Of a DNA stretch of 64,000 bases, positions 2,948 to 20,275 are shown piece after piece. Origin of the DNA: a virus. Each line of letters begins with the position of its first letter. Within the stretch, counting starts at the first letter, position 1. The notes below the pieces were generated by a model, which did no database searches, had not been told where the DNA came from, and saw only the letters and a program-made list of their open reading frames with translations. The translations under genes were made by a program, and so were the position numbers. The stretch covers positions 14,564-78,563 of the IMG/VR virus record IMGVR_UViG_3300005518_000003. One strand, written 5' to 3'.

Positions 2948-4684
2948 TTACTCGGCCGCTTCGTCGTTGCGACGGTGTCTCGACGTTCCGGGGAACCGGA
3001 GCGAGGAGTTGTCCTCTTCCACCACGAGTCCGAGACCGCGCGCCGCGCTGTCGAGAACCTGCGGATGGAATTGTCCGAGCGTCGCGAAGCTGCCGCGATG
3101 CTTGGCGATGAGCTGATCGGCGTACTTGCGCTGATCCGGTGTCGCATGTCCTGCCGCATGCGCAGCGAGCACTTCGCGATTCTTTCGAAGCGCGACGTAG
3201 GCTTCTCCGTGCGAGCGTAGGACGTCCGTTGCTCCCGAAACGTCGCCGAGTCCACGGACTCCCACCGGAGCGTACGCGGAAACCGGAGGGCTTTGTGGCG
3301 TCGTCGGAACCATGATGCCCGGAGGCATTTGTTCCGGCGGAACTTGTGGCTGACGCGAAATCGCCGGAGGCGGCACGAATCCGCCTGGCGGGGTGTACGG
3401 GCCTTGATTCACGACGGGCGGATATCCTCCGCCCGGTGGAATCGTCGGATGCGGACCGCCTTGTGGAAGTTGCATTTGCGGCATCACGCTCGGCCCGGTT
3501 GAAGGACCGGACGGAATCATGCTGCGACATCCGCAAGAACCGCCGAGGCCAGGGTACTGACCGCAGGTCGAGCACGGGGCTCCGGCGAGACCGACCGCCG
3601 TGCGCTGTCCGATTTCTCCCGAGAAAAGCTTCTTCCCGGTCGAGTCGGATGCGCTGTCCTTGAAGAGGTACGCCGCGAGATCGTCGACGGCTTTTCCGAC
3701 GAGACGAACGGCTGCGCCGAATCCGAAGAACTGAAGCGCGCTGCGCCCCATCGGCGATCGAATGAACTGCGCGACGACGAGCGGTGTTCCGGCCACGGCG
3801 ACGCCCGCACCAACGCGCGGAAGGAAGTCGTCCATGAGCGGAGCTTCGATGAAGCGCATCGCGAGCGCTTGACCTTTGTCGTCCTTGCGTTCTCGCATCG
3901 TCACGAGACGATCGATCACGTCGGCAGCGGTGTAACCGATGGCGCCCGTGACGAGGCCGACGACGAGCTCCCAGCCAGTGACCGGGTTCTCCATCGCTCC
4001 GCGACGGGAGTGACGACGGCGACGGAGACGCTCACCCGTGATGTGTCCGACGAGGCGCGTGCGGTAGCGCTTGCCGTGCGACTTGCCTCCGCGGCGACGT
4101 GTGAAACGTCCGCGACGGGTGCGACGCACCTGGCGCGGGAACTCGCGCGCACGCGCGCGACGACGACGACCACCTCGACGGCGACGGCGGCGGCGCGGAG
4201 CTTCGGCTGCACGCGCGTAGCGGCGGCGACGGCGGCGGCGCGGAGCTTCTCGAGAACGACGTGCGCGACCTCGACGACGGCGACGGCGGCGCGGAGCTTC
4301 CTCACGCGATTGACGACGACGACGACGACCACCCTTGCGACGTTTGCGGGCCATGTGCACGGTCTCCTTGGAATGAGAACGGCGTCTCGCCCGCACGCGA
4401 GATCGTTTTCTTCGCTTGAGTGAACCGCGACGGCGGCGCTTCGTCAAGCCCTCTTCTTTCGCATGACGACGGCGACGGCGTTTGCCGGCACGACGCTTTG
4501 CAGCTTTCCCGCCGAAACCAGCCTTGATCTGCGCAGGAGTCAGCCTGCGTCGTTTTCCTCTTCGCGCCATCTTTCTGCCTCGTTTTCGTGGGGTGTCTGC
4601 ATGAAGGACCACCGCCCGCCTCGAAGCAGCCTGCTCTGGCTCGGAACGCGCTCGCGAGAGAATCTCTCGATAGTCGACGGGCAT
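2948..4684 (-). CDS. Arg-rich (protamine-like) core/membrane polyprotein
   Basis: About 200 aa of poly-Arg tracts, then MENP, hydrophobic helices, a Cys cluster and a Pro/Gln-rich region with GLG sites. The start may be MARRGK at 4570. Confidence 0.7.
   Translation of the reverse strand: MPVDYREILSRARSEPEQAASRRAVVLHADTPRKRGRKMARRGKRRRLTPAQIKAGFGGKAAKRRAGKRRRRRHAKEEGLTKRRRRGSLKRRKRSRVRARRRSHSKETVHMARKRRKGGRRRRRQSREEAPRRRRRRRGRARRSREAPRRRRRRRYARAAEAPRRRRRRRGGRRRRARAREFPRQVRRTRRGRFTRRRGGKSHGKRYRTRLVGHITGERLRRRRHSRRGAMENPVTGWELVVGLVTGAIGYTAADVIDRLVTMRERKDDKGQALAMRFIEAPLMDDFLPRVGAGVAVAGTPLVVAQFIRSPMGRSALQFFGFGAAVRLVGKAVDDLAAYLFKDSASDSTGKKLFSGEIGQRTAVGLAGAPCSTCGQYPGLGGSCGCRSMIPSGPSTGPSVMPQMQLPQGGPHPTIPPGGGYPPVVNQGPYTPPGGFVPPPAISRQPQVPPEQMPPGIMVPTTPQSPPVSAYAPVGVRGLGDVSGATDVLRSHGEAYVALRKNREVLAAHAAGHATPDQRKYADQLIAKHRGSFATLGQFHPQVLDSAARGLGLVVEEDNSSLRFPGTSRHRRNDEAAE
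4180..4300 (-). repeat. Three tandem coding repeats, EAPRRRRRRR
   Basis: GGCGGCGCGGAGCTTC recurs three times on the + strand. Confidence 0.75.
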
Positions 4685-5281: not shown

Positions 5282-6118
5282 TCACTTCGCTCGACGACTC
5301 GCCCACCAAGCTTTGATGTCGTCTTTGTACACAAAGCCGAGAACACCCGCGGTGACGACTGTTCCGCCAAGCATCCACCAACCCCACGGGAACTCCGGCC
5401 CGGCCTTTGGCGTAGTGCATCCGCCAGCCACGAACTTCTGCGCTTCGAGAAGATCGTCGCGCGCCTTCAAATCTTCCTTCGACCAGGGCGCGTTCGGATT
5501 CTGGATGTGATAGTCGACGATTTTGTTGTAGTCCGCATGCAATCGAATGAGCTCGCGATCACATTCGATCTTCGAAAGAATGTCGTCGATGACGAGCGAC
5601 GCGAAGTAGATCAAAGCGATGGCGATCGCTGTAACCGCAAGCATCTGCGCGATGACGGCAACGATCATCACGGGGATGAGCACCTCGATGTTTCCCGTCG
5701 AGTTGTTTTTCATCTGCGTGGCGTCAGCCGGCGTTGGCGTTTTGATTCCGCGTCGCTTCGCAATAATCTGAAGCGTACGAGCCAGCGTATCTGTCGGATT
5801 GTCCGAGCCGCCAGCGCTGATATTTTTGTCGTTCGCGAGCTTCGCGTTGATCGCACTCGAGACCATGAGCGTGATGAAGTCTTGCTTCGAAGGGTTGTCG
5901 TTCGCGATCCACTTTTTGGCGGTGGCTCTTGCATTCGCGGAGGCGAACGCCTGATCCCACGAGCGGCCCTGTACTTGTGCCCAAAACTGTTTGATGAGTA
6001 CGTACGGATTGAGCGAAAACGCAGGAAGTTTGAGCGCTGCGGTGACGTCGTCGATGGGTGCGCCAAGGCCCACGATGCGAAGTGCTTTCTGAAAATCTTC
6101 GTAGCGTACGAGGGTCAT
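5282..6118 (-). CDS. Membrane protein (internal and C-terminal TM segments)
   Basis: Long hydrophobic stretch plus C-terminal WGWWMLGGTVVTAGVLGFVY; GLGAP near the N-terminus. Confidence 0.7.
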   Translation of the reverse strand: MTLVRYEDFQKALRIVGLGAPIDDVTAALKLPAFSLNPYVLIKQFWAQVQGRSWDQAFASANARATAKKWIANDNPSKQDFITLMVSSAINAKLANDKNISAGGSDNPTDTLARTLQIIAKRRGIKTPTPADATQMKNNSTGNIEVLIPVMIVAVIAQMLAVTAIAIALIYFASLVIDDILSKIECDRELIRLHADYNKIVDYHIQNPNAPWSKEDLKARDDLLEAQKFVAGGCTTPKAGPEFPWGWWMLGGTVVTAGVLGFVYKDDIKAWWASRRAK

Positions 6119-7002
6119 CGGCTTCTCACCTTTCGAATGACGACGGCAGCGAGAGCCGACGCAGCGACGATACCACCGCCGACCACGGCCGCCTGCTTGT
6201 TCGTGAGCTTCGGAAGTGAGGGCAGATCGGGAAAGAAATCGCCAAGCTCACCGAGACCACGAACGAGACCGCGAATCGGCTTCGCGAGCTGCGGTGCTGC
6301 GGCTTGGACGCCCTGACCGACGTTATACCAAACCTGTTCTTGCGGATCCGGACCGAGCACCATCTCGCTCGGAAGTTGATGGTACTGGCCGTCACTTCCA
6401 AGACCAAGCACCGGTAGTGCTCCGATTCCGACGAACTCGGCTTGAAGACCCGCGTACGCCGGATCCTTCCACGGGTTCATGCGTGTCTCACGCGACGCCT
6501 TCGCCTTTTCACCCGCCGTGAAGCGCGGCGTGGTCGCATCGAGTGGAAACCATTTCCCATCTTCGAGTTTCACTTCGCAAATCACGTGCTGTTGATGCTC
6601 CGACCCGAAGAACTGGCGAACAATCTCAACTTCGAGTCCCGACGCCGCGCAAAGCGACGCGAGTGCCGTCACGAAGCCATCGCAATCCTCGATCGGAATG
6701 CACGCCAAGGCCCCTTCAACGCAGAGCGTGATCGGCGCGGCTTGGATCAACTCCGTGCCCGGTGGATCGTGCGTGTACCCAATGCTTCGTTTGCAATGGT
6801 TGAAGTGCGCGGTCGCTTTCTCTTTGTTCGTTCGCGGAAACATCGCTTGGCGAAGGATGTTGCCCGCGAAGCTGCGAAAAATTGGCATGGGAGCAGCCTC
6901 CCGAACCTTTTCGCAGATTTTGTGCAGCGACTTTTGGATCCCTTCCTCGCCGTCCGGATACGACTCACGAAGGTACGGAACGCCAGCGGAGGAGGTGTTC
7001 AT
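6115..7002 (-). CDS. Transglutaminase-like cysteine protease with C-terminal membrane anchor
   Basis: DCDG (Cys), QHVICEV (His) and WFPLDAT (Asp) in the order of the transglutaminase-core triad; C-terminal TM followed by a basic tail. Confidence 0.8.
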   Translation of the reverse strand: MNTSSAGVPYLRESYPDGEEGIQKSLHKICEKVREAAPMPIFRSFAGNILRQAMFPRTNKEKATAHFNHCKRSIGYTHDPPGTELIQAAPITLCVEGALACIPIEDCDGFVTALASLCAASGLEVEIVRQFFGSEHQQHVICEVKLEDGKWFPLDATTPRFTAGEKAKASRETRMNPWKDPAYAGLQAEFVGIGALPVLGLGSDGQYHQLPSEMVLGPDPQEQVWYNVGQGVQAAAPQLAKPIRGLVRGLGELGDFFPDLPSLPKLTNKQAAVVGGGIVAASALAAVVIRKVRSR

Positions 7003-7005
7003 CGA

Positions 7006-7398
7006 TCAGTCCTGAATGCACATATACGGGAAGTTCGGCATTCCCGTAGGAACGGAGTGATATCCCGGAGGACACGGATTCGCTTTCGGGTTGGAAAGAT
7101 TCTGCGCGAGCTGACTCGCAACATTTGCAAGATTGACGGGTTGCAATTGCGGCGGCGGCTGCGGTGGTGGCGTCGTATCGACCGGCTTGACGTTTCCAGG
7201 CGGACCGGTTGTCGTCGGCGTCGATCCAGGAGGAAGCGGTTGCTTTCCGCTCGCGATGTCCTCGGTCGTCGATTTCTTCGTAAGGTAGTTCGTGAGGAGA
7301 ACGGCGACGGTCGTTGTTATCGCGGCTGTTGCCCCGGCAATAAGGAGCTGCATCCCCGTGCTCTCGACCGGATTTCTTCGCGCTCTTCGCATCACCAC
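7006..7398 (-). CDS. Small membrane protein with RRNP leader
   Basis: MRRARRNPVES, then a TM helix and a Pro/Thr-rich tail. Confidence 0.7.
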   Translation of the reverse strand: MVMRRARRNPVESTGMQLLIAGATAAITTTVAVLLTNYLTKKSTTEDIASGKQPLPPGSTPTTTGPPGNVKPVDTTPPPQPPPQLQPVNLANVASQLAQNLSNPKANPCPPGYHSVPTGMPNFPYMCIQD

Positions 7399-7970
7399 AC
7401 CGGAAGCGGGTTGGCTGGGAGCAGAAACCCAATCTGCGAAGCGATGGCTTGAACGCTCTTATAGAGCGCGTTGATCAACTCCGAAGAGAGCTGGAGCCCT
7501 TTCATCGCGTTCACCCATGCGGCAACGTCGTTCAAGAGCTGTTGGTTATTCTGCTGGTTCGGCTGACCGTACGCTTGCGGATTCGGCGCGGGCGGTGGTG
7601 TTCCGCCTCCTCCGCCTCCGCCTGGTGGAAGAGTTTTTCCACCGCCACCCATTTGCGCTGAACTTGGACGCAGCGCGAAGTAGAGGCCCGTCCCTAGGAT
7701 GGCTGCACCGCCGAGACCACCGAGGATGTAGAGCGTCGATTTTTTCATGACCGGATTGCTGCGTGCACTTCTTCGGCGTGCGCGTCGACGTTTTACGTAG
7801 CGACGAGAATAATCGCGTCGATCAAGGCTTGCAGATCCACGCGAACCGTGAGGAAGCCATCGCAGAGCTTCTCGTTTGTTCCTCGCTTGGACGTAAAAGT
7901 ACGACGACCTGCTTTCCCCAGGATAGCGGTAGGTCACCTTGTACGATTTGAAATCCCACATCGCGGGCAT
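7392..7970 (-). CDS. Membrane protein with basic domain, RSNP motif and TM
   Basis: RBS before ATG 7970; RRRARRRSARSNPV, then TM ending GLYFALRP. Confidence 0.7.
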   Translation of the reverse strand: MPAMWDFKSYKVTYRYPGESRSSYFYVQARNKREALRWLPHGSRGSASLDRRDYSRRYVKRRRARRRSARSNPVMKKSTLYILGGLGGAAILGTGLYFALRPSSAQMGGGGKTLPPGGGGGGGTPPPAPNPQAYGQPNQQNNQQLLNDVAAWVNAMKGLQLSSELINALYKSVQAIASQIGFLLPANPLPVW

Positions 7971-8034
7971 CCCTCTTTCACGCACGACGCGCCCGCACGA
8001 GCGCCTGCATGTCGTCAGCATACGACGAGGTGGG

Positions 8035-9135
8035 TCACTTCGACAATTCGGCCAATTTGTTGATGGTGGTGGCGATCTTTATAACGACGCTCAGCGCAGA
8101 GAGTGCGGGGCCGAAAGCCAAGGAAAACACTGTTCCGATCGTGGCCATGAACATCTCGAAGACCATCCCAGCATCGACCACTTTGATGCATGGATTTACC
8201 TTCTCGTCGTGCGACTCGAACATGTCGATCAGTCCCGCGATCATCATTCCGCCAACAGACGCGTGGAGCATCGTGAGCGATTTTTGCGGAAGAGGTTTCC
8301 CTTCGCTGTCGGTCGTCGGAAGCGTTTTGTCGTTTTTCTTTGCGAGGTCGCGTGCAAATTGTGCGAGCCGATCGCGCGTCCACGCGGGCATTGCGAACAT
8401 AAAGAGCGAAGAAACATCACCTGGAAGAGAAAACGGCAACGTGATCCCGTATTTCTTCAACGCGGTGAGCACACCTCCGAAGTCTCCGCTGTCCAGTCCT
8501 TTTTTGATGCTGGCCTCCATCGAAGCGACGACCGCTGCGTTGAATGCTCCTGGATCTGCGTGAGGATCGATCGCGTTCCCAGCGTAGCGAATCTGTTTTC
8601 CTTTGTCTCGCGGGTCGCATTGGAGATCGACTCCACACGTCTTGATGATGTCAGGACCGCGATAGACCGTGTTGAAGAACGGGTAGGCCCAATCGTTTCC
8701 GAGCTGAACAACCGCTGCGGCCAACGTCTGGCAATGCGAATGACTCGCAAGTTCGTCGGTCGTGAATTTATTTTCTTTGTTGTAGAAGGCCGCCAGAATG
8801 AGATCGATCACTTTTACGCCGCCGTGCGTGAAGATTTTTCGAAACGCATCGGCTTGAAGAAAAATCGGCGTGCCATTCCCGAGTAGATCCGCCATGGCCG
8901 TCAGCCGTTTCGTAAGCGCTGCGATCTCGATTCCTCGAAGCACGGACACTTGTGCGTACGTCGAGCTCACGGCGAGCATGCTCTCGATCGCGGATTTTTT
9001 CTTTGGCCTTGTCGCCGCGTAGACGATTCCGCCGAAGAGAGCAACGCCAGCACCGATGCCACCGTAAACCGTGAGCTTCGGGTGCTTGTGATAGAAGCGC
9101 TTCGCACTCCTCTTGACGTCGCTGACGAGTTTCAT
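8035..9135 (-). CDS. Membrane-anchored protein
   Basis: N-terminal TM ending GGIVYAATRP and a hydrophobic C-terminus; 366 aa. Confidence 0.7.
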   Translation of the reverse strand: MKLVSDVKRSAKRFYHKHPKLTVYGGIGAGVALFGGIVYAATRPKKKSAIESMLAVSSTYAQVSVLRGIEIAALTKRLTAMADLLGNGTPIFLQADAFRKIFTHGGVKVIDLILAAFYNKENKFTTDELASHSHCQTLAAAVVQLGNDWAYPFFNTVYRGPDIIKTCGVDLQCDPRDKGKQIRYAGNAIDPHADPGAFNAAVVASMEASIKKGLDSGDFGGVLTALKKYGITLPFSLPGDVSSLFMFAMPAWTRDRLAQFARDLAKKNDKTLPTTDSEGKPLPQKSLTMLHASVGGMMIAGLIDMFESHDEKVNPCIKVVDAGMVFEMFMATIGTVFSLAFGPALSALSVVIKIATTINKLAELSK

Positions 9136-9443
9136 GACCGAGTCGCTGAAATCACACCACCGCCGCCACCGTTACTTCCGCCGCCACCGATCTGATTTCC
9201 GTGTTCATCGACCCACGACACGTTTGGAGAGTATGGAGCGAACGCTGCGTAGACTCCCGGAACAGCAGTGGGAGAGATCGTCGTTACGTTTGGCTTGGCT
9301 CCATCACCGCTTGTCGGTGGTCTCGTTCCTTGGGGAGAGACGATCTGCTTCGGCCTAGTGGCGTAGTAGACCGCCCCGCCGATGCCAGCCGCACCTGCGA
9401 GGAGTCCAACGATCCACGCTGCCTTCTTTGCACCCTTCGTCAT
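9132..9443 (-). CDS. Small membrane protein
   Basis: N-terminal TM ending GGAVYYATRP; Gly-rich tail. Confidence 0.7.
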   Translation of the reverse strand: MTKGAKKAAWIVGLLAGAAGIGGAVYYATRPKQIVSPQGTRPPTSGDGAKPNVTTISPTAVPGVYAAFAPYSPNVSWVDEHGNQIGGGGSNGGGGGVISATRS

Positions 9444-9646: not shown

Positions 9647-11158
9647 TCAGAAGCCTCCCCAACCTCCTTCGCCTGAACCCGTCCCTGGATTTTGCGGAGG
9701 CTGCGGTGGTTGCTGCGGTTGAAGTTGTTGCATCGGCGGCGGCTGTTGAAATTGCGGTGTCTGCTCTTCTTCTTCGGGCGATCCGGCGAGACCACGACGC
9801 TTGGTGGCTTGAGCTTCGAGCCATGCAGCTCCCGCATCCATAAGCCTCTGCGACGGACGCGGATTCATGAGAAGCATCCCGAGCGGATCGACCTTGCCCG
9901 TTTCCTTGTCGCGAACGAGCTTCGCCTTGGTTCCGTCGTCCCACACCGAGGGCAGCTCGGTGATCTGGTACGGGAGATCGTCCTCTTCCTTCACCTCGGG
10001 CGGTGCAGGAAGCATTGGAACGGTCGTCGTCTCTTCCGGCTCTTCGGCCGCAAATCGTTCGCGCATCTTTTCACCGAACGCGACGTAGCGATCGAAAATC
10101 TTGAAACCCTGATCCATCGCCGTAAGCGGATCCATCTGCGTTGACGACGTTGGTGGAGCGCCGAGACCGGCTGCTTTGACGGCAGCGATCATCGCGGTCG
10201 CAAGACCTTCGACGGTCATCTGCGTGATCGGGGTTTGACCCGGAGGAGCTCCGACACCCGGTCGATGTTGTGGTTGTGGTGATTGCGGTTGCTGCCTCAG
10301 CCGCCGATTCTCTTCTTCGAGCGCAGCGAGACGCTTCTCGAGATCGGATTGCTGCGGCGGCGGAAACCCGTATTGAGGTGGGTAGCCGTAGGGCTGGTAG
10401 CCGTACGGAGCCGGAGGTTGCGGAGGTTGCTGCGGCTGCTGTTGCTGCGGCTGCTGCGGTGGTTGTCCAGGAGCAGCGGGGAGCCGGGGAATTTGGCCGA
10501 AGCCCGGTTGCGGGCCGTACTGGCTCGCCATTCGCTGTTGCCACTGGGCTTGACGAAGCGCGTTGATCTCGCCTTGCGACTGAAGCGAGATGTAGCCGTT
10601 GACGATGTACTGTCCGTTCGCTTTCCAGACGAACTGGAGCTCGTAGCGAGCCGGACCGCGCGCGATGTTGTGGTAGTAGTCCTCGACGTACTGTTTGATC
10701 GCCGTTGTCGGCGACATCTCTTGGTTGCCAACGACCGCGCTCGCCTCGAACGCATACCCAATGCTCTGACGCGGCGGCGGATCGATTCGAATCACGTTGA
10801 CGACGACGTCATACGCAGATCGTCCGTGCGCCTCGAGCCATTCGAGAACTTCGGGCCAAAGAACTTCTACTTCTCGGCTCGTCCACTTCGGAGCTCCGTC
10901 TGCACTCGCATCGAATCGATCAGGGATGGCTCCTGCTTTTCCGCTCGGTCTTCCAGGAGTTTTCGGAGCGCCAACACCCGTTTGAGTTGGACCGCGACGC
11001 CTGCCCGCGGGATGTGTTTTTTCTTTCTCTTGAGGTGGAGGCGTTGGAGGAGGAACGACCGGTGCTGTTTCAACTGGTACACCATTCGCTCCTTCCGGCG
11101 GCGGTTCCCAATCTGGTCCCTGACCCGGCGTTGCCGGATCTTGCGTTTCATTGTCCAT
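9647..11158 (-). CDS. Pro/Gln-rich protein (possible scaffold or tape-measure-like)
   Basis: 503 aa, low-complexity linkers, short coiled coil, repeated GVGAP/GLGAP. Confidence 0.7.
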   Translation of the reverse strand: MDNETQDPATPGQGPDWEPPPEGANGVPVETAPVVPPPTPPPQEKEKTHPAGRRRGPTQTGVGAPKTPGRPSGKAGAIPDRFDASADGAPKWTSREVEVLWPEVLEWLEAHGRSAYDVVVNVIRIDPPPRQSIGYAFEASAVVGNQEMSPTTAIKQYVEDYYHNIARGPARYELQFVWKANGQYIVNGYISLQSQGEINALRQAQWQQRMASQYGPQPGFGQIPRLPAAPGQPPQQPQQQQPQQPPQPPAPYGYQPYGYPPQYGFPPPQQSDLEKRLAALEEENRRLRQQPQSPQPQHRPGVGAPPGQTPITQMTVEGLATAMIAAVKAAGLGAPPTSSTQMDPLTAMDQGFKIFDRYVAFGEKMRERFAAEEPEETTTVPMLPAPPEVKEEDDLPYQITELPSVWDDGTKAKLVRDKETGKVDPLGMLLMNPRPSQRLMDAGAAWLEAQATKRRGLAGSPEEEEQTPQFQQPPPMQQLQPQQPPQPPQNPGTGSGEGGWGGF

Positions 11159-12864: not shown

Positions 12865-14814
12865 CTACCGGGAACGCACCTTGTGAAGCTTTTTGTCGGC
12901 GAACGAATAGAACTCGCCTTCGCCCATCACCACGTGGTCGATGAACGCGATTCCAGAGGCTTTGCAAGCATTTTTCATTGCTTTGGTCAGGTCGGCATCG
13001 GCATCCGAAAAATCCGCTCCGCCGCTCGGATGGTTGTGCAGGATCGCAAGCCCTTTCGCGCCGCGATCGATGGCCGGCTTGAGGACGTCAGCAGGATCGA
13101 CGGCAACGCGATCGCGCTGACCTACGTGAACGATGGCGACCCCGCGGAGGTCGGAATGGATATCGAGCAGGATCGCGCAGAGGTGCTCCTTGTCCTGCTT
13201 CGAAGCCCACGGATGCATCATGTTGTAGATGTCGCGTGAATTCTTGATCGGACCGATTTGTTGCGCGACCTCGCGAATCTCTCGAAAGTCATCCGCGTTG
13301 CGCTCGACCTTCACGAACGGAATTCCATCCGTCACCTCAACGGGATTCTCACCCACGTGTTTTGCATGTGGCCAGTGCTGTCGCGCGCTTGCTCGTACTT
13401 GATCTTCAGATTCACCACGAATGATGTTGATCGAGTACCCGTGACGATCACGCGCAACCGCTTCCCACTCTTGGCGGACTTCGTCGTACGCGATCTCTAC
13501 GGTCACGACCTTTCGCTCGCGTCCCTCGGCCGCCCCGCCACATCCGTGCTCGCAGCCGCATTCGTTCGCTTCACGCGAGATGCCACCAGGAACACCTCGT
13601 TGCGGATCCAACTTAGACAAAGCCTCGGCATTGCTCGGGAGCTTCCTCACCCGCTTACCAGTGTTTGGCCAGTGATAGAGCCCCTTCTTGTAAAAGAGCT
13701 CGCGCTCGGTGTAGCTGCCGTCATCCCGCGGCGTGTACGTCCGAACGACCCATTTCTTTTTGTCGTCCCAATACTTCACGAAGTGCGTCGCTGAGAACAT
13801 TCCACGATGAGCTTCATGGCGAAGCGCATCGTCGATGTTGTTGAAGTCGCGCGCTTCACGTGGCCCGCTCTCTGGAGGAAGTAGTGGAGGAGTCTCCGGT
13901 CCCGAGTGGAGAATGAGATGCTCCGATTTCATCTTGCCTTTAGAGCCGTCGCGCCAGAGAACGGTGATCTTTTCGCCTTCGACGGAGATCACGACGCCGG
14001 GATTGAGTTTCTTTGCAAGCCTTGGAAGAACGCCAGGCGCAAGCTGCACGTCGTCACCGCGTTGGAAATCGCGCGCCTGGACTGGGTTCTCGCGGAGCAA
14101 CCGATCGACGCCCGACTTCGCCTGTCGCAACGCCTCACCACGTGTGGTCGCACCCCAATGACCTCCACGAACGATGGCCGACCACCACGTGGTTCCGTCG
14201 TCCATGAGATATTTTTCGAGTCGAATGTTCTCGCCGTGGTAGTCGACCGTCTCGCGTTGTTGGATTCGATCGCGCGCCTCGACGGGGTTCTCGCGAACAA
14301 ACGAGACGCTCGGACGCACCGCAGGCTGCGAATTCGCAAAAGCTTCTGCTTCGCCTTTCGTCTTGAACGGGCCGTGATACTCGCTGCTCCGATCACTTGG
14401 TCTGCGGCCGTATGCGTACCAGACCGTGCTCCCGTCTTTCGGACGCTCTGATGGATGCATCTGATCACTCGAAACGATTCGCCAAGGAATCGGTTGCCTC
14501 CATGCCGGCTGAGGACCGCGACGAGGATTCTCTCGCGCACCCGGACGTCGGATCAGTCCAATGTGCACCGCGTAGTCGTACGCGCTCTCGTGCATCTTTC
14601 GTGGATTGAGGAAGCCGTCTTGAATCGCTTCGCCGACTTGATCATCCCACCACTCAATGATGGTCGCGTCGTTCTTCGCGTTGATCAGCTCGACGTGTGC
14701 TCGGTCACGCTCCTCCCAGGTCGAGAGCCGCGTGTCACTGAGAGACAATTCGGGCACGGAATGACGTCCACGGCGACGGGCTTCTTCGGCGGCGGCGGGA
14801 TTCATTCGAGGCAT
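12865..14814 (-). CDS. Multi-domain (polyvalent) protein with C-terminal RadC/JAB domain
   Basis: C-terminal E...HNHPSG...SDAD...DHVV JAB motif; small domains separated by RENP/GENP linkers. Confidence 0.85.
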   Translation of the reverse strand: MPRMNPAAAEEARRRGRHSVPELSLSDTRLSTWEERDRAHVELINAKNDATIIEWWDDQVGEAIQDGFLNPRKMHESAYDYAVHIGLIRRPGARENPRRGPQPAWRQPIPWRIVSSDQMHPSERPKDGSTVWYAYGRRPSDRSSEYHGPFKTKGEAEAFANSQPAVRPSVSFVRENPVEARDRIQQRETVDYHGENIRLEKYLMDDGTTWWSAIVRGGHWGATTRGEALRQAKSGVDRLLRENPVQARDFQRGDDVQLAPGVLPRLAKKLNPGVVISVEGEKITVLWRDGSKGKMKSEHLILHSGPETPPLLPPESGPREARDFNNIDDALRHEAHRGMFSATHFVKYWDDKKKWVVRTYTPRDDGSYTERELFYKKGLYHWPNTGKRVRKLPSNAEALSKLDPQRGVPGGISREANECGCEHGCGGAAEGRERKVVTVEIAYDEVRQEWEAVARDRHGYSINIIRGESEDQVRASARQHWPHAKHVGENPVEVTDGIPFVKVERNADDFREIREVAQQIGPIKNSRDIYNMMHPWASKQDKEHLCAILLDIHSDLRGVAIVHVGQRDRVAVDPADVLKPAIDRGAKGLAILHNHPSGGADFSDADADLTKAMKNACKASGIAFIDHVVMGEGEFYSFADKKLHKVRSR

Positions 14815-14829
14815 CTTACACCGAGTGTA

Positions 14830-15012
14830 CTACCCCTGCTTCTGCGGCGTCGGATCGACCTTGTGGGCGATGAGAGTGATCCCTTGACCCCTGAAATAAA
14901 GCTTGGCGCTCGGTGATTTGAGCGTGTCGTCGAGCTTTTTCGTGAGCATCGCAGCTTGAGCGTCATCCTTCGCATCGAAGACCGCTTCCAGTTTCATCAC
15001 ATACCTCGGCAT
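14830..15012 (-). CDS. Small hypothetical protein
   Basis: MPRYVMKL start after GGAGGA, overlapping the upstream stop. Confidence 0.55.
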   Translation of the reverse strand: MPRYVMKLEAVFDAKDDAQAAMLTKKLDDTLKSPSAKLYFRGQGITLIAHKVDPTPQKQG

Positions 15013-15509
15013 CACTTCCTCCTCTTTCTCCTCAGTTTTTTCACACCTTGTGGAGAACCGTGTCGCGGTGGTCCGCCAGCACATTCGCGCACCAATCGAT
15101 GCGCTTCGTCGATCACGAATGGGTGTTTCCTCCAACCGAATTTCGTGTGGTAGAGGAATTTCATCATCGCGTTGTAGGCAATGGCCACGAGGTGACGCCG
15201 CGGGTCGCCCTCAAAGTGATCGTACGGCACGCCGGTCACGTACTCGACGTAGTGCTTGAGCACGTGGTTGAGCGGATCCGCATCCTCAGTGAGCTCGCTC
15301 AACGAATACTGGAAGCAGTCTTCGTACTTCTCGTCAGCGTACGCGCCGATCTCCGCCATCATCAACAAAAACTCGGGATTGATGGCGTCGTAGCGGTAGC
15401 GAACCTTGTTACGTGTTGCTTTGACTAGCTTTCCCCCCATCCGAACGGGATCGAGCATGTCGCGAACGGTTTCTTCCACCTGCGGACTGAATTTTTTCTT
15501 TCGTTTCAT
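15012..15509 (-). CDS. dATP/dGTP diphosphohydrolase-like (DUF5664) protein
   Basis: K.RYD.I.PE.L...A....Y...KY and H...Y..G...D......HL..IAYNAM pattern. Confidence 0.65.
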   Translation of the reverse strand: MKRKKKFSPQVEETVRDMLDPVRMGGKLVKATRNKVRYRYDAINPEFLLMMAEIGAYADEKYEDCFQYSLSELTEDADPLNHVLKHYVEYVTGVPYDHFEGDPRRHLVAIAYNAMMKFLYHTKFGWRKHPFVIDEAHRLVRECAGGPPRHGSPQGVKKLRRKRRK

Positions 15510-16209: not shown

Positions 16210-16633
16210 CGCTTTTCCTTTCTCGAAGTATCTGAACGAGCCTCGTGCACCATCGCGTCTGACCTTCTTTGGTCATCCTCCCGAAGAATTCGTTCGCTTC
16301 TTCGTCGGTGAGATCTTCGACTTCTAGATCGACGATCGATTCGCCGCGTTTGATTCGAACGAAGATGCCGGAGCCAGTCTCCGGCGAGCGCTCGCGGACG
16401 CCAGGTCTGTCGTTGTGGAGATCCCCTTCCTTGGTGGGCCCAGCAAGTGCCCATATTCCGCACTTGTCACATTGAAGCCTACGAACCCAGGGTGACCACG
16501 CCTGGTATCGATAGGTACCGCCACATTGTTCGGCTTCGTGCGTCGGGTACTTCTCACGAAGCGGGCAGCCGCGGAAGTGCCGCGTCGGATCGCGATTCAT
16601 GATCTCGGCGCAGTGACACTCTTGCTCAACCAT
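16184..16633 (-). CDS. Cys-rich hypothetical protein
   Basis: Co-oriented overlapping ORF with CxC/CxxC motifs. Confidence 0.5.
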   Translation of the reverse strand: MVEQECHCAEIMNRDPTRHFRGCPLREKYPTHEAEQCGGTYRYQAWSPWVRRLQCDKCGIWALAGPTKEGDLHNDRPGVRERSPETGSGIFVRIKRGESIVDLEVEDLTDEEANEFFGRMTKEGQTRWCTRLVQILRERKSDGDQKQPR

Positions 16634-17378
16634 AATCCGCTCCCGCGTTCATGCGCACGAGCGCGCGTTCCGCCATCGCTTCGATCTCTTTCGGGATCGC
16701 CTTACGAGGTTCGGCGCTCACCCACTTCTCTCCGTGCGGGAAGCATACGTACGCGTGTTCGGTGTCTTCACGAAACTCGCGCTCGATGATCGTGACCGTT
16801 CCTGACTCGGGCTTCGATTCGTGGAACGCATCCGCGGTGAGGCTGTACGAATCGCCTTCAACGAAGGTGACTTCCTGAAGCTTCTCGACGAGTACGGATT
16901 CGGATTCTCCAACCGCGCATCCGCCAGGACCGCATACGATCTTTTGCCTGGAGTGCGTAGGCGTCTTGAATCCGAAGTTGCTCACCTCGTAGAGCACGTC
17001 GGTCATCCGCCCCGAGATGACCGTCGAACGGAAGTGCCACGGATGCGAATGAATCGTCGAGACACTCTCTGTACGGAAGCGATCGTCCCAAACGTGAAGA
17101 CGCATCGATTTCGACAAGTAGAGTCGGAACATTCCGAATCCCTGGAGCGTCCACGTGTCGAACGCGAGCGGTGCCATGAGAATTCGGCGAACCGTCTCGC
17201 GAAGCATTCGCTGCTTTGGTTGGTCTATCGTATTCCAAAGCTCCCACGCTTTCGGGCGCTCCATTCGTCCTTTTCCATCCGAGAACGCACCGCAGTTGGG
17301 ACACCACGCGGGAATCAGTCGAGTGTCTCGCGCTTCGACGATCGTCACCGGGTTCCGACAAAAATTACAGACCGCCAT
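16626..17378 (-). CDS. Zn-ribbon plus cupin-like protein
   Basis: Two CxxC pairs, then RLHVW...IHSHPW.F.S.VISG...FHE cupin pattern. Confidence 0.6.
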   Translation of the reverse strand: MAVCNFCRNPVTIVEARDTRLIPAWCPNCGAFSDGKGRMERPKAWELWNTIDQPKQRMLRETVRRILMAPLAFDTWTLQGFGMFRLYLSKSMRLHVWDDRFRTESVSTIHSHPWHFRSTVISGRMTDVLYEVSNFGFKTPTHSRQKIVCGPGGCAVGESESVLVEKLQEVTFVEGDSYSLTADAFHESKPESGTVTIIEREFREDTEHAYVCFPHGEKWVSAEPRKAIPKEIEAMAERALVRMNAGADYG

Positions 17379-18493: not shown

Positions 18494-20275
18494 TCATGCG
18501 TCCTCCGCAAGCATCTCTGCCATCTTCACGCGCTCGCGAGACGTCTCTTCGGCGAGCTCGCGTCGTGTGAGCCTCTGGATGTACGCATTGCGCGAAGACG
18601 TTGCCCAGCGCTCTTCCTCCAGCGCTTCCCCAATCTCTTCGCGCGTCATGTCCTTTGGATACGCGTCAGCGAGAACGCGAAGACACTTTGCTTCGGGTCC
18701 TGGAAGCTTGCGAAGCCAGTGTTCGAGCAGCGCTACGCCGGTCGGAAGCTCTTCGTAGTCATCGCCAAGCCATTCGACGCCCTCCAGAGTGATGCGGTGG
18801 CGATCTCCGACCTCCTCAAAGATGCCGGCATTCCGACCGCGCTGGAAATACGCGTTGCGTGTGCTTCCCTTCGCCCCGGTGATTTGTGTGATCTGCGAGC
18901 GCGTCACTCCGCTTTCTCCGAACTGCGCGACCGCAGCCACGAACGACCGCGGAACTTTCACTTCTCCTTCAACCTTCGACGCATCCCCATTCGACTGAGG
19001 TCTCGACGCAACCCTCTTCTTTTCTTTTGGTACGACGACGATCGCCGGAACAACGATCTTTCCGACAGCGAGATGTTGCATCTGCTGGCGAAGTCGCTTG
19101 AGCTCATCGAGCGCTGACTGCGCCATACCCTCGGCTCGGAGCGTTTTCTCTTTCGCATCTTCGGTTGCTTTGCGCGACGAACCCAAAGCTTCAACCAACG
19201 CGTCGACCTGCTTCTCGAGTTTCTTTTCTTGTCGCTTCGTAAGAACCGGTACCTCGATACGCTTTGGGATACGCGCGGGAGATGGATCGGGTTGAAGCTT
19301 CTTGAATTTTCCCGCTGCCTCGAGCTCCTTTTTGAGTCGCATGACTTCTGCCTTCAATGCTTTCGGATCGTTCGCTTTCGCTTGTTCTACGGTCGCCGCC
19401 ATCTGCGCAGAGAGCGCACCAAGATCGACGTCAGCAAGTGTCTTGGGAGGCTTGACCTTCTTCCCATCCGGCGTCCGACTGGAGTCGAACGTCTTTCGTT
19501 CACGGAATGAAACGCATTCGAGCATCCCGTTCATGAGACCTGGCGCCCAAAACCAACCCGTGCCGCGTTCGAGCGACGAAAGCGTTCCTAGCACTTGCTT
19601 TTGCTCTTCTTTGGTCCCGTTGTGTTCGATCCAGTCCCCGAATGCGTTGATGTCCTGCGGTCCCGTGAGGCGAAACGCGATCAAGATCTCGATTTGTGTG
19701 AGCACGTCTTTCGCGATGCGTGCAGGACGCTGCGAAATGAGCGTCACACCGATGCCGCGCGTACGACCACGCAGAACGAAATCGTTGATCGCCCCAACGA
19801 GCGGAAGCATGTCCGCAGAATCGACGCGCTGCGGGACGAAGAGATCGCACTCATCGATGACGATGTGAAGAGGCTCTCGTTGCTTGTTCTTGAGGAGGTA
19901 GAGCTTATCGGCGAAGTCGCGAACGAACCGGCGCATCGCGCTCTTCGAGAAGTCGGAGAGATCGAGCACACACGAGAGACGATTTTCGACGACGTACTCG
20001 GCGAGGACGGTACCTCCACGCTCCTCGAGTGGCATATCCGCATGGAGACCCCCGAAGATCGGAATCGGATAGCCGCCTTCCTTTTTTCCATTGCTCCCCG
20101 CACGAAGCCCCCAGGCTCCGCCTGTCGGATCGATGACAATGGTCTGCACCTTTGCGTCGAGTAGCTCCTCGACGAGGAGCATCCCGGTGTGGGTCTTACC
20201 CGAACCGCGCTTACCGATGATTCCGATGGTCTCGGTTGCGATGTTCGGGATCTTGAGCTTGGGGGCGAGACGCAC
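18494..20275 (-). CDS. HerA/FtsK-superfamily ATPase (DUF87-like) with coiled coil and C-terminal HTH-like region
   Basis: Walker A GKRGSGKT, Walker B IVIDE, RGRTRGIG, SQRPA...KDVLTQ. Confidence 0.85.
   Translation of the reverse strand: MRLAPKLKIPNIATETIGIIGKRGSGKTHTGMLLVEELLDAKVQTIVIDPTGGAWGLRAGSNGKKEGGYPIPIFGGLHADMPLEERGGTVLAEYVVENRLSCVLDLSDFSKSAMRRFVRDFADKLYLLKNKQREPLHIVIDECDLFVPQRVDSADMLPLVGAINDFVLRGRTRGIGVTLISQRPARIAKDVLTQIEILIAFRLTGPQDINAFGDWIEHNGTKEEQKQVLGTLSSLERGTGWFWAPGLMNGMLECVSFRERKTFDSSRTPDGKKVKPPKTLADVDLGALSAQMAATVEQAKANDPKALKAEVMRLKKELEAAGKFKKLQPDPSPARIPKRIEVPVLTKRQEKKLEKQVDALVEALGSSRKATEDAKEKTLRAEGMAQSALDELKRLRQQMQHLAVGKIVVPAIVVVPKEKKRVASRPQSNGDASKVEGEVKVPRSFVAAVAQFGESGVTRSQITQITGAKGSTRNAYFQRGRNAGIFEEVGDRHRITLEGVEWLGDDYEELPTGVALLEHWLRKLPGPEAKCLRVLADAYPKDMTREEIGEALEEERWATSSRNAYIQRLTRRELAEETSRERVKMAEMLAEDA

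Follow-up and report, generated by a model that had tools for sequence, protein, structure and literature searches.

The stretch of viral DNA analyzed here (the window: 64,000 nucleotides, positions 14,564 to 78,563 of IMG/VR virus record IMGVR_UViG_3300005518_000003) carries on its minus strand an open reading frame (ORF) for a modular protein of 649 amino acids (aa) that ends in a RadC/JAB domain. The source is an uncultured phage with a complete 78,563-bp (78.5-kb) record with direct terminal repeats, in which terminase-like, Sak4, exonuclease, helicase and primase genes have been detected. An interval described in a first-pass annotation as a beads-on-a-string polyprotein corresponds to exactly this one ORF, 12865..14814, and the N-terminal extension that the ORF has over its 630-aa database version is kept in relatives. 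The product is a chain of separately folding small units, M1 to M6 (of about 55-90 residues), that also carries a Cys motif and ends in the RadC/JAB unit, and comparison with relatives shows that units have been gained, lost, reordered and exchanged at the short peptide tags that join them. Packaging of this protein into the virion and its release by cleavage are plausible on the sequence evidence. The gene and its parts, in protein order, are as follows, with model confidence as the predicted local distance difference test (pLDDT).

12865..14814, minus strand: modular polyvalent protein, whole ORF, 649 aa plus stop
14764..14814, minus strand: basic leader, aa 1-17, with a tag-like AEE-ARRR; relatives begin M-x-x-(S/A)-E-(A/T)-R-R-R
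14539..14763, minus strand: M1, aa 18-92, three strands and two helices (TW-ERDRAHV ... EWWD ... DGFLNP), pLDDT 96-98
14521..14538, minus strand: tag 1, ARENPR, aa 93-98, bordering the low-pLDDT stretch 100-106
14299..14520, minus strand: M2, aa 99-172, variable unit of strands and a helix, pLDDT 81-92 over 111-165
14269..14298, minus strand: tag 2, VRENPVEARD, aa 173-182, overlapping the stretch 166-177 of pLDDT <50
14098..14268, minus strand: M3, aa 183-239, four-strand sheet and long helix, pLDDT 88-95; copies in homologues P0003 and P0172
14065..14097, minus strand: tag 3, LRENPVQARDF, aa 240-250; the same string precedes M5 in P0003
13867..14064, minus strand: M4, aa 251-316, small beta unit, then a Pro-rich tail, pLDDT ~78-80 over 262-301
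13843..13866, minus strand: tag 4, GPREARDF, aa 317-324, an REA variant with the same ARDF as tag 3, within the stretch 302-340 of low pLDDT
13579..13842, minus strand: M5, aa 325-412, helix and beta meander with a G-x-(Y/W)HWP motif, pLDDT 86-93
13561..13578, minus strand: tag 5, SREANE, aa 413-418, kept in P0003 and P0004
13540..13560, minus strand: Cys motif C-G-C-E-H-G-C, aa 419-425, found in P0003-P0006, P0178 and P0179 immediately before the last tag
13354..13533, minus strand: M6, aa 428-487, variable unit, placed after the Cys motif and before tag 6; P0003 has a copy of 50% identity
13336..13353, minus strand: tag 6, GENPVE, aa 488-493; P491 is invariant in eight RadC-ending homologues, distant ones included
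12868..13335, minus strand: RadC/JAB unit, aa 494-649; the Pfam RadC match, aa 523-642, corresponds to 12889-13248

The tags have the general form x-R-E-N-P-V or x-R-E-A-x, and all six linker strings that had been quoted between small modules are present, setting apart six units and the RadC domain. They are not a product of chance. When the window is translated in six frames, all three occurrences of RENP and three of the five occurrences of ENPV fall within this ORF, and six of the 13 matches to the pattern [RKG]E(NP|A[RPN]) in the window proteome (about 100 ORFs) belong to it. When the residues of the protein were shuffled 20,000 times, no shuffle contained as many as six pattern matches (the maximum was four) or as many as four ENP. 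At the DNA level, tags 2 and 3 form a 34-nucleotide repeat of 85% identity. The tag codons otherwise vary (CGA GAG AAT CCT; CGC GAG AAC CCC; GGT GAG AAT CCC; CGT GAA GCG) and are different again in related viral contigs L001 and L002, which rules out the tags as pure DNA repeats except for the pair of tags 2 and 3. Because the codons differ between linkers, it is the peptide that appears to be conserved and not only a DNA segment for recombination, and the pattern is read as selection on the tag amino acids.

The separate folding of the units was predicted with AlphaFold2 for aa 1-494 from a 58-row alignment. Rather than one integrated fold, the model contains five compact units with block pLDDT of 78-98 and a predicted template modeling score (pTM) of 0.36. 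The compact blocks span approximately residues 21-95 (pLDDT ~97), 111-165 (81-92), 181-245 (88-95), 262-301 (~79) and 341-405 (86-93), and pLDDT falls below 50 at 100-106, 166-177, 247-260, 302-340 and 405-447. Four of the six tags lie inside low-pLDDT stretches and the remaining two are no more than five residues from one. The ESM Atlas model of the whole protein has a pTM of 0.28. M1 modeled alone gave pLDDT 93.4 and pTM 0.79, with three strands and two helices. The pLDDT of M6 is low and its alignment shallow, so that M6 is delimited as a unit by its copy in P0003 and not by a confident model.

Close homologues of the protein are rare, only five being found among 5.8 billion clustered proteins, and an exact-word scan of viral contigs with the protein found nothing. 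The order of units in this protein (P0001) and in four homologues is given below, where t is a tag and t' an REA-type tag.

P0001: M1-t-M2-t-M3-t-M4-t'-M5-t'-Cys-M6-t-RadC
P0003: M1-t-M6-t-M3-t-M5-t'-Cys-t-RadC
P0004 and P0005: M1-t-M5-Cys-t-RadC
P0006: M1-(other unit)-t-M5-Cys-t-RadC

The close relatives retain M1, M5, the Cys motif and RadC, and the remaining units have been gained, lost or reordered. M6, for example, follows M1 in P0003 and has the Cys motif and the last tag as its neighbors in P0001. Every unit junction in P0003-P0006 falls at a (R/K/Q)(E/K)(N/S)PV or REA tag; the architectures thus vary and the tags are kept, in agreement with the earlier proposal that new modules are added between repeated linkers. 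P0001 and P0003 are 98% identical in M3, 79% in M1 and 73% in RadC, and this difference indicates a recent lateral exchange of M3 as a single unit. In P0179, the constant Cys-tag-RadC end is preceded by a different N-terminal unit. RadC-ending proteins that are more distant (P0033, P0043, P0046, P0172, a 1105-aa ORF of L001 and a 492-aa ORF of L002) are built from M1, M5, M3 and other units in combination, and in all of these except P0172 an (E/D)NP stands a few residues ahead of the (I/V)PW(V/L)K with which the RadC unit starts.

The C-terminal domain is a clear RadC, with a PF04002 match at aa 523-642 (E-value 2.3e-28, 99 bits against a cut-off of 22.1) and a match to phrog_10276 (E 1e-23). 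The metal site had been described as intact, and its JAMM residues E543, H593, H595, S603 and D606 (E...HxH...S..D) are indeed the same in all eight RadC-ending homologues that were aligned. A family-specific (I/V)PW(V/L)K extension precedes the JAB domain. Cellular RadC/YicR proteins carry an N-terminal helix-hairpin-helix region before that domain. RadC is a component of phage and plasmid polyvalent proteins, as the first-pass annotation had stated, and it has been argued to lack the groove for a ubiquitin tail and probably to act on nucleic acids or nucleotides (PMC5512222). Structure comparison of a RadC-like domain found JAMM metalloproteases, not nucleases (PMC11981726).

Apart from RadC, the units belong to no described family that could be detected. 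Pfam at E<=1 on the whole protein gave no family besides RadC and Prok-JAB, Pfam and PHROGs searches with the whole protein and with each unit gave nothing significant besides RadC, and Pfam on ten relatives gave only RadC and an SPOR-like unit in P0062. M1 had no Pfam family and no PDB match, the best E-value of its profile against PDB sequences being 0.63; by itself it gave Foldseek E-values of 0.028 or higher and VIA Z scores of 4.0 or lower, and a weak likeness to small anti-CRISPR proteins was not significant. With the 494-residue model, Foldseek returned only spurious alignments across several domains, and the best VIA-align score (Z 5.6, the best fold match of M3) was within noise, M4 lying outside the fold-search rows. 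ESM Atlas searches with M1 and M5 gave no usable match, and a BFVD search gave a single match, to an unnamed viral protein (E 5e-4). M4, which had been called SH3/KOW-like, is possibly an SH3/KOW/OB-like unit, its Pfam matches all being below cut-offs (PCB_OB, E 0.005; KOW2_Spt5, E 0.13; KOWx, E 0.24), and it is absent from all five close relatives. M2 has no match in P0003-P0007 at a BLASTP E-value of up to 10, and P0006 has an unmatched stretch at the position of M2. M5 is a recurrent, unannotated unit that is found in P0003-P0006, P0033 (twice), P0034, P0035, P0046, P0062, P0172, L001 and L002. An exhaustive HMMER search in which aa 1-494 served as the query gave 452 clusters (50% identity) at E<=1e-3, almost all through M1. 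In these, M1 is either a free-standing protein of 65-100 aa or occupies any position in modular proteins of up to 990 aa; an M1-bearing protein of 1173 aa is on viral contig L036. By sequence, M1 is a widespread unannotated domain. Most plausibly, the small units are binders or inhibitors of host factors, and they may have the anti-defense role that the first-pass annotation had suggested.

Tags of the same kind are found in other proteins with M1. Modular proteins P0022, P0023, P0051, P0054, P0097 and P0168 have [RK][EKRQ]NP[RVA] tags, and P0007, P0029, P0034, P0035 and P0062 have (S/G)EA(R/P)R tags. Where NP occurs downstream of M1, it lies 2-17 residues past the M1 end in 26 of 29 occurrences. 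The tags are also present in proteins of this phage with virion-type features. An Arg-rich core protein of 578 aa (2948..4684, minus strand) contains a protamine-like Arg tract of about 190 aa with Glu in A/S-x-E spacers (AKE, SKE, SRE, SRE, AAE, ARE, AME), including three E-APRRRRRRR repeats (of the forms SRE-APRRRRRRR and AAE-APRRRRRRR), and its AME-NPV leads into a hydrophobic, Pro-rich membrane part. Two small membrane proteins (7006-7398 and 7392-8021, both minus strand) have, immediately ahead of the transmembrane helix, a basic stretch with RRNPV or RSNPV at its end, and this NPV is the same motif as in the tags of the polyvalent protein.

Two further phages, a tagged phage without RadC and an analogue linked to an S77 protease, are new here and bear on how the tags might be read. 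The first, L032 (IMG/VR contig 3300031772_000013), is a 75-kb phage, complete by CheckV, that encodes at least three proteins with V-S-E-A-(R/P)-R tags and in whose record no RadC, S77 or S78 match was found. Its neighboring tagged modular genes are the following.

L032 7766-8899, plus strand: tagged modular protein
L032 10001-11062, plus strand: tagged modular protein with an Arg/Lys-rich C-terminal tail
L032 12438-13643, plus strand: tagged modular protein with an Arg/Lys-rich C-terminal tail

In L036 (IMG/VR contig 3300032516_000013), an unrelated phage, the M1-containing polyprotein of 1173 aa bears x-E-S-K tags. Directly downstream of its gene comes that of a 912-aa protein (6524-9262, plus strand) in which an N-terminal T4 gp21-type prohead protease (Peptidase_S77, E 8e-13) is fused to several small x-E-S-K-tagged units and a C-terminal coiled coil. 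The 502-aa ORF that comes next is presumed, from its position only, to encode the capsid protein.

The position of the polyvalent gene fits late expression and possible packaging. The gene is part of a long minus-strand array, after the terminase-like gene and small accessory genes, and the genes with virion-type features come directly after it. The local order, from a MazG-like gene through polyvalent-RadC and a small acidic protein to a 391-aa structural-repeat protein, is kept in L001 and L002, such that the slot directly upstream of the virion genes is common to three related phages. This conserved slot makes late expression and packaging plausible. A promoter and terminator scan around the gene showed no unit boundaries. 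No in-frame ATG or GTG was found after the tags, and internal translation starts at the tags can therefore be ruled out.

The tags could serve as recognition sites. The polyvalent protein would be synthesized late and enter the particle as cargo, a virion maturation protease would cut after the tag Glu, and the small units and the RadC enzyme would thereby be freed to enter the host with the DNA. The triplets that end in Glu are ARE, VRE, LRE, PRE, SRE and VGE at the tags and AEE in the leader. The prohead protease of phage SPN3US processes head and ejection proteins by cleavage after A-X-E and prefers Ser at P1' (PMC10052503). A maturation-protease model is favored by the Glu-ending tags in the Arg-rich core protein together with the S77 neighbor in L036. 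We nevertheless place the full proposal, that of a tag-joined polyvalent cargo cut after the tag Glu by a trans-acting protease, somewhat short of even odds, not least because variants with K for E fit it poorly.

Several observations weigh against this proposal. No S77 (PF03420), S78, ClpP or S49 protease was found in the full record of this phage (G000), nor was S77 or S78 found in related records, those of phages G005 and G006 included, apart from the S77 in the record of L036. Very divergent Peptidase_S77 members could escape a PF03420 search. The P3 residue of the tags is A, V, L, P, S or V, which follows no single A/S/G-x-E or L/I-x-E rule, and in relatives that have K for E (ARKNPV, RKKNPA) the constant element is N-P rather than Glu. 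NPVE is also compatible with a plain helix N-cap, and M1 has an internal FLNPR that is clearly structural. Some polyvalent proteins, namely the phage N4 virion RNA polymerase (vRNAP), ArdC and TraC1, are transferred full-length (PMC5512222). The only peptidase-type folds found in the phage are RadC/JAB and a transglutaminase-like protein encoded at 6115..7002, which is a candidate for the tag-reading enzyme. This minus-strand gene encodes a transglutaminase-core protein of papain-like fold, with 49-52% identity in G005 and G006.

A doubtful but possible alternative is that the protein is never cut. The tags would then be flexible joints, with NPVE as a helix N-cap, and would be kept because short shared linkers allow in-frame recombination of modules, the product working as one multi-domain polyvalent protein whether it is packaged or not. 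The DNA repeat of tags 2 and 3, the duplication of ARDF flanking the M4 insertion, the short helix predicted to begin at P244 within tag 3 and the intact transfer of N4 vRNAP, ArdC and TraC1 are all consistent with such joints. However, the remaining tags use different codons, so it is not DNA homology that has been kept; the leader has a tag-like AEE-ARRR where a joint would be unneeded; the same tag type is found in non-modular virion proteins of this phage; and the L036 analogue adjoins a Glu-specific prohead protease. It is considerably less likely that the C-terminal RadC/JAB is itself the processing metallopeptidase, cutting its own tags in cis or in trans along with other tagged virion proteins. 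Its JAMM site is intact and invariant, the P491 of the tag before it is invariant even in distant homologues, a RadC-like domain has been found to resemble JAMM metalloproteases in structure, and no other canonical maturation protease was found in G000, G005 or G006. Tagged modular proteins without RadC are nevertheless common (P0022, P0023, P0034, P0035, P0051, P0062, P0168), and the role is weakened further because a complete phage without RadC, L032, carries similar Glu-ending tags. Characterized JAMM enzymes are known to cut after Gly-Gly and not after Glu or Asn. Of the earlier suggestion that the JAB domain releases the modules as an isopeptidase, the intact site therefore stands, and the releasing role is weakened by these RadC-less proteins and phage and by the argument that RadC lacks the ubiquitin-tail groove. 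The specific form in which RadC/JAB is a maturation peptidase that reads R-E-N-P and R-E-A tags, cutting the polyprotein of which it is a part as well as the core and membrane proteins that carry tags, is if anything a little less likely. If true, it would provide the first biochemical function for the RadC family and a new virion-maturation system, and the present case gives a concrete route to testing RadC as a peptidase. A trans-acting enzyme that is not yet recognizable in the genome is more likely to be the tag protease than is the RadC domain.

Release could also occur with no protease at all, by spontaneous breakage of the tag Asn-Pro bonds through cyclization of the Asn side chain, and self-cleavage of this kind has precedents in N|PTH of FlhB/EscU and N42|P43 of reovirus mu1. 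N-P is the most constant element of the NP-type tags (for example [RK]NP[RV] in P0051, P0054, P0097 and P0168), the NP lies at the short distance past M1 noted above, and (R/S)NPV stands directly before the transmembrane helices of the two small virion proteins. But two of the six tags (REARDF and REANE) and all EARR-type tags have no N-P, the tags are predicted to be disordered, and known cases of N|P self-cleavage depend on a strained turn within a folded domain, which makes this mechanism highly improbable. FlhB/EscU-type self-cleavage at NPTH was rejected in particular, the tags being NPV(E/Q) or NPR in low-confidence linkers and not an NPTH turn in a folded domain. Ribosome skipping of the 2A type (D-x-E-x-N-P-G-P) was likewise rejected since the N-P-G-P core is missing; the tags read E-N-P-V or E-N-P-R with no G-P after them.

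The gene product belongs to the known polyvalent proteins with RadC and is distinguished by its very small unannotated units and its conserved tag code. Polyvalent proteins are encoded by phages, plasmids or conjugative elements and have two to fifteen distinct domains in one polypeptide, in combinations that vary among relatives. The present protein is phage-encoded, contains seven units including RadC, and has relatives with varied sets and orders of units (P0003-P0006, P0033, P0046, P0172, L001 and L002). As in the polyvalent proteins described by Iyer, Burroughs, Anand, de Souza and Aravind (2017; PMC5512222), many unrelated domains, RadC/JAB included, are joined in one phage polypeptide of variable architecture, and DNA-coupled delivery is proposed, for which the evidence here is the position of the gene. 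Unlike in those proteins, the units here are 55-90 aa long and outside the described families save RadC, no zincin-type processing peptidase is present, and a conserved short peptide tag joins the units (the word "linker" is absent from that paper).

Cutting after the tag Glu would resemble the processing of head proteins in T4, phiKZ and SPN3US, which are cut after x-x-E. Substrates of T4-type prohead proteases (T4 gp21, phiKZ gp175, SPN3US gp245; PMC10052503) likewise have short repeated Glu-ending motifs in virion cargo and a gene in or beside the head module, and the L036 analogue, with the same M1 unit, adjoins a Peptidase_S77 gene. The differences are that no S77-type protease is detectable in this phage, that the tag is x-R-E-N-P or x-R-E-A instead of A/S/G-x-E, and that known prohead cleavage mostly removes N-terminal propeptides and does not split strings of domains. 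The Dar proteins of P1 (DarB, DdrB) and N4 vRNAP, which serve as packaged anti-defense or early-function cargo, are large virion-carried proteins delivered with DNA, as is proposed here, and DdrB is proteolytically processed before packaging (PMC5512222). Those are large enzymes (a methyltransferase-helicase and an RNA polymerase), whereas the payload here consists mostly of tiny domains with no recognizable enzyme family.

Polyvalent proteins are regarded as the weapons that a phage delivers first, and how their parts are organized and released is mostly obscure. A tag that marks module boundaries, moves with modules and recurs in virion proteins is a simple sequence rule that could be used to find and dissect cargo proteins in metagenomes. 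The tags also delimit new small phage domains that can be expressed singly for testing against defense systems, and M1, with its 452 clusters and a confident fold lacking any convincing PDB match, is one such domain.

The Cys motif just before the last tag could have a role in JAB latency or metal binding, but this is pure speculation. In the distant relative P0172, a larger Cys/His-rich stretch that includes P-R-C-G-P-D replaces the C-x-C-x-H-x-C motif, and we take P-R-C-G-P-D to resemble the cysteine-switch motif of matrix metalloproteinase pro-domains.

Other genes of the region include two upstream of the polyvalent gene, both on the minus strand, with products that are candidates for early or anti-defense functions on the basis of their family matches.

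15012-15509, minus strand: MazG-like dATP/dGTP diphosphohydrolase N-domain (E 3.5e-6, 27.3 bits against a cut-off of 27)
16626-17378, minus strand: sub-threshold match to a Lar restriction-alleviation zinc ribbon (E 7e-6, 26.6 bits against a cut-off of 28.6)
18494..20275, minus strand: 593-aa ORF with a terminase large-subunit family match (phrog_2666, E 4.8e-17, aa 13-226)

A GroES/Cpn10 homologue (PF00166, E 1.8e-28; L047) is encoded upstream of the window, at 9945-10589 on the minus strand of the full phage record.

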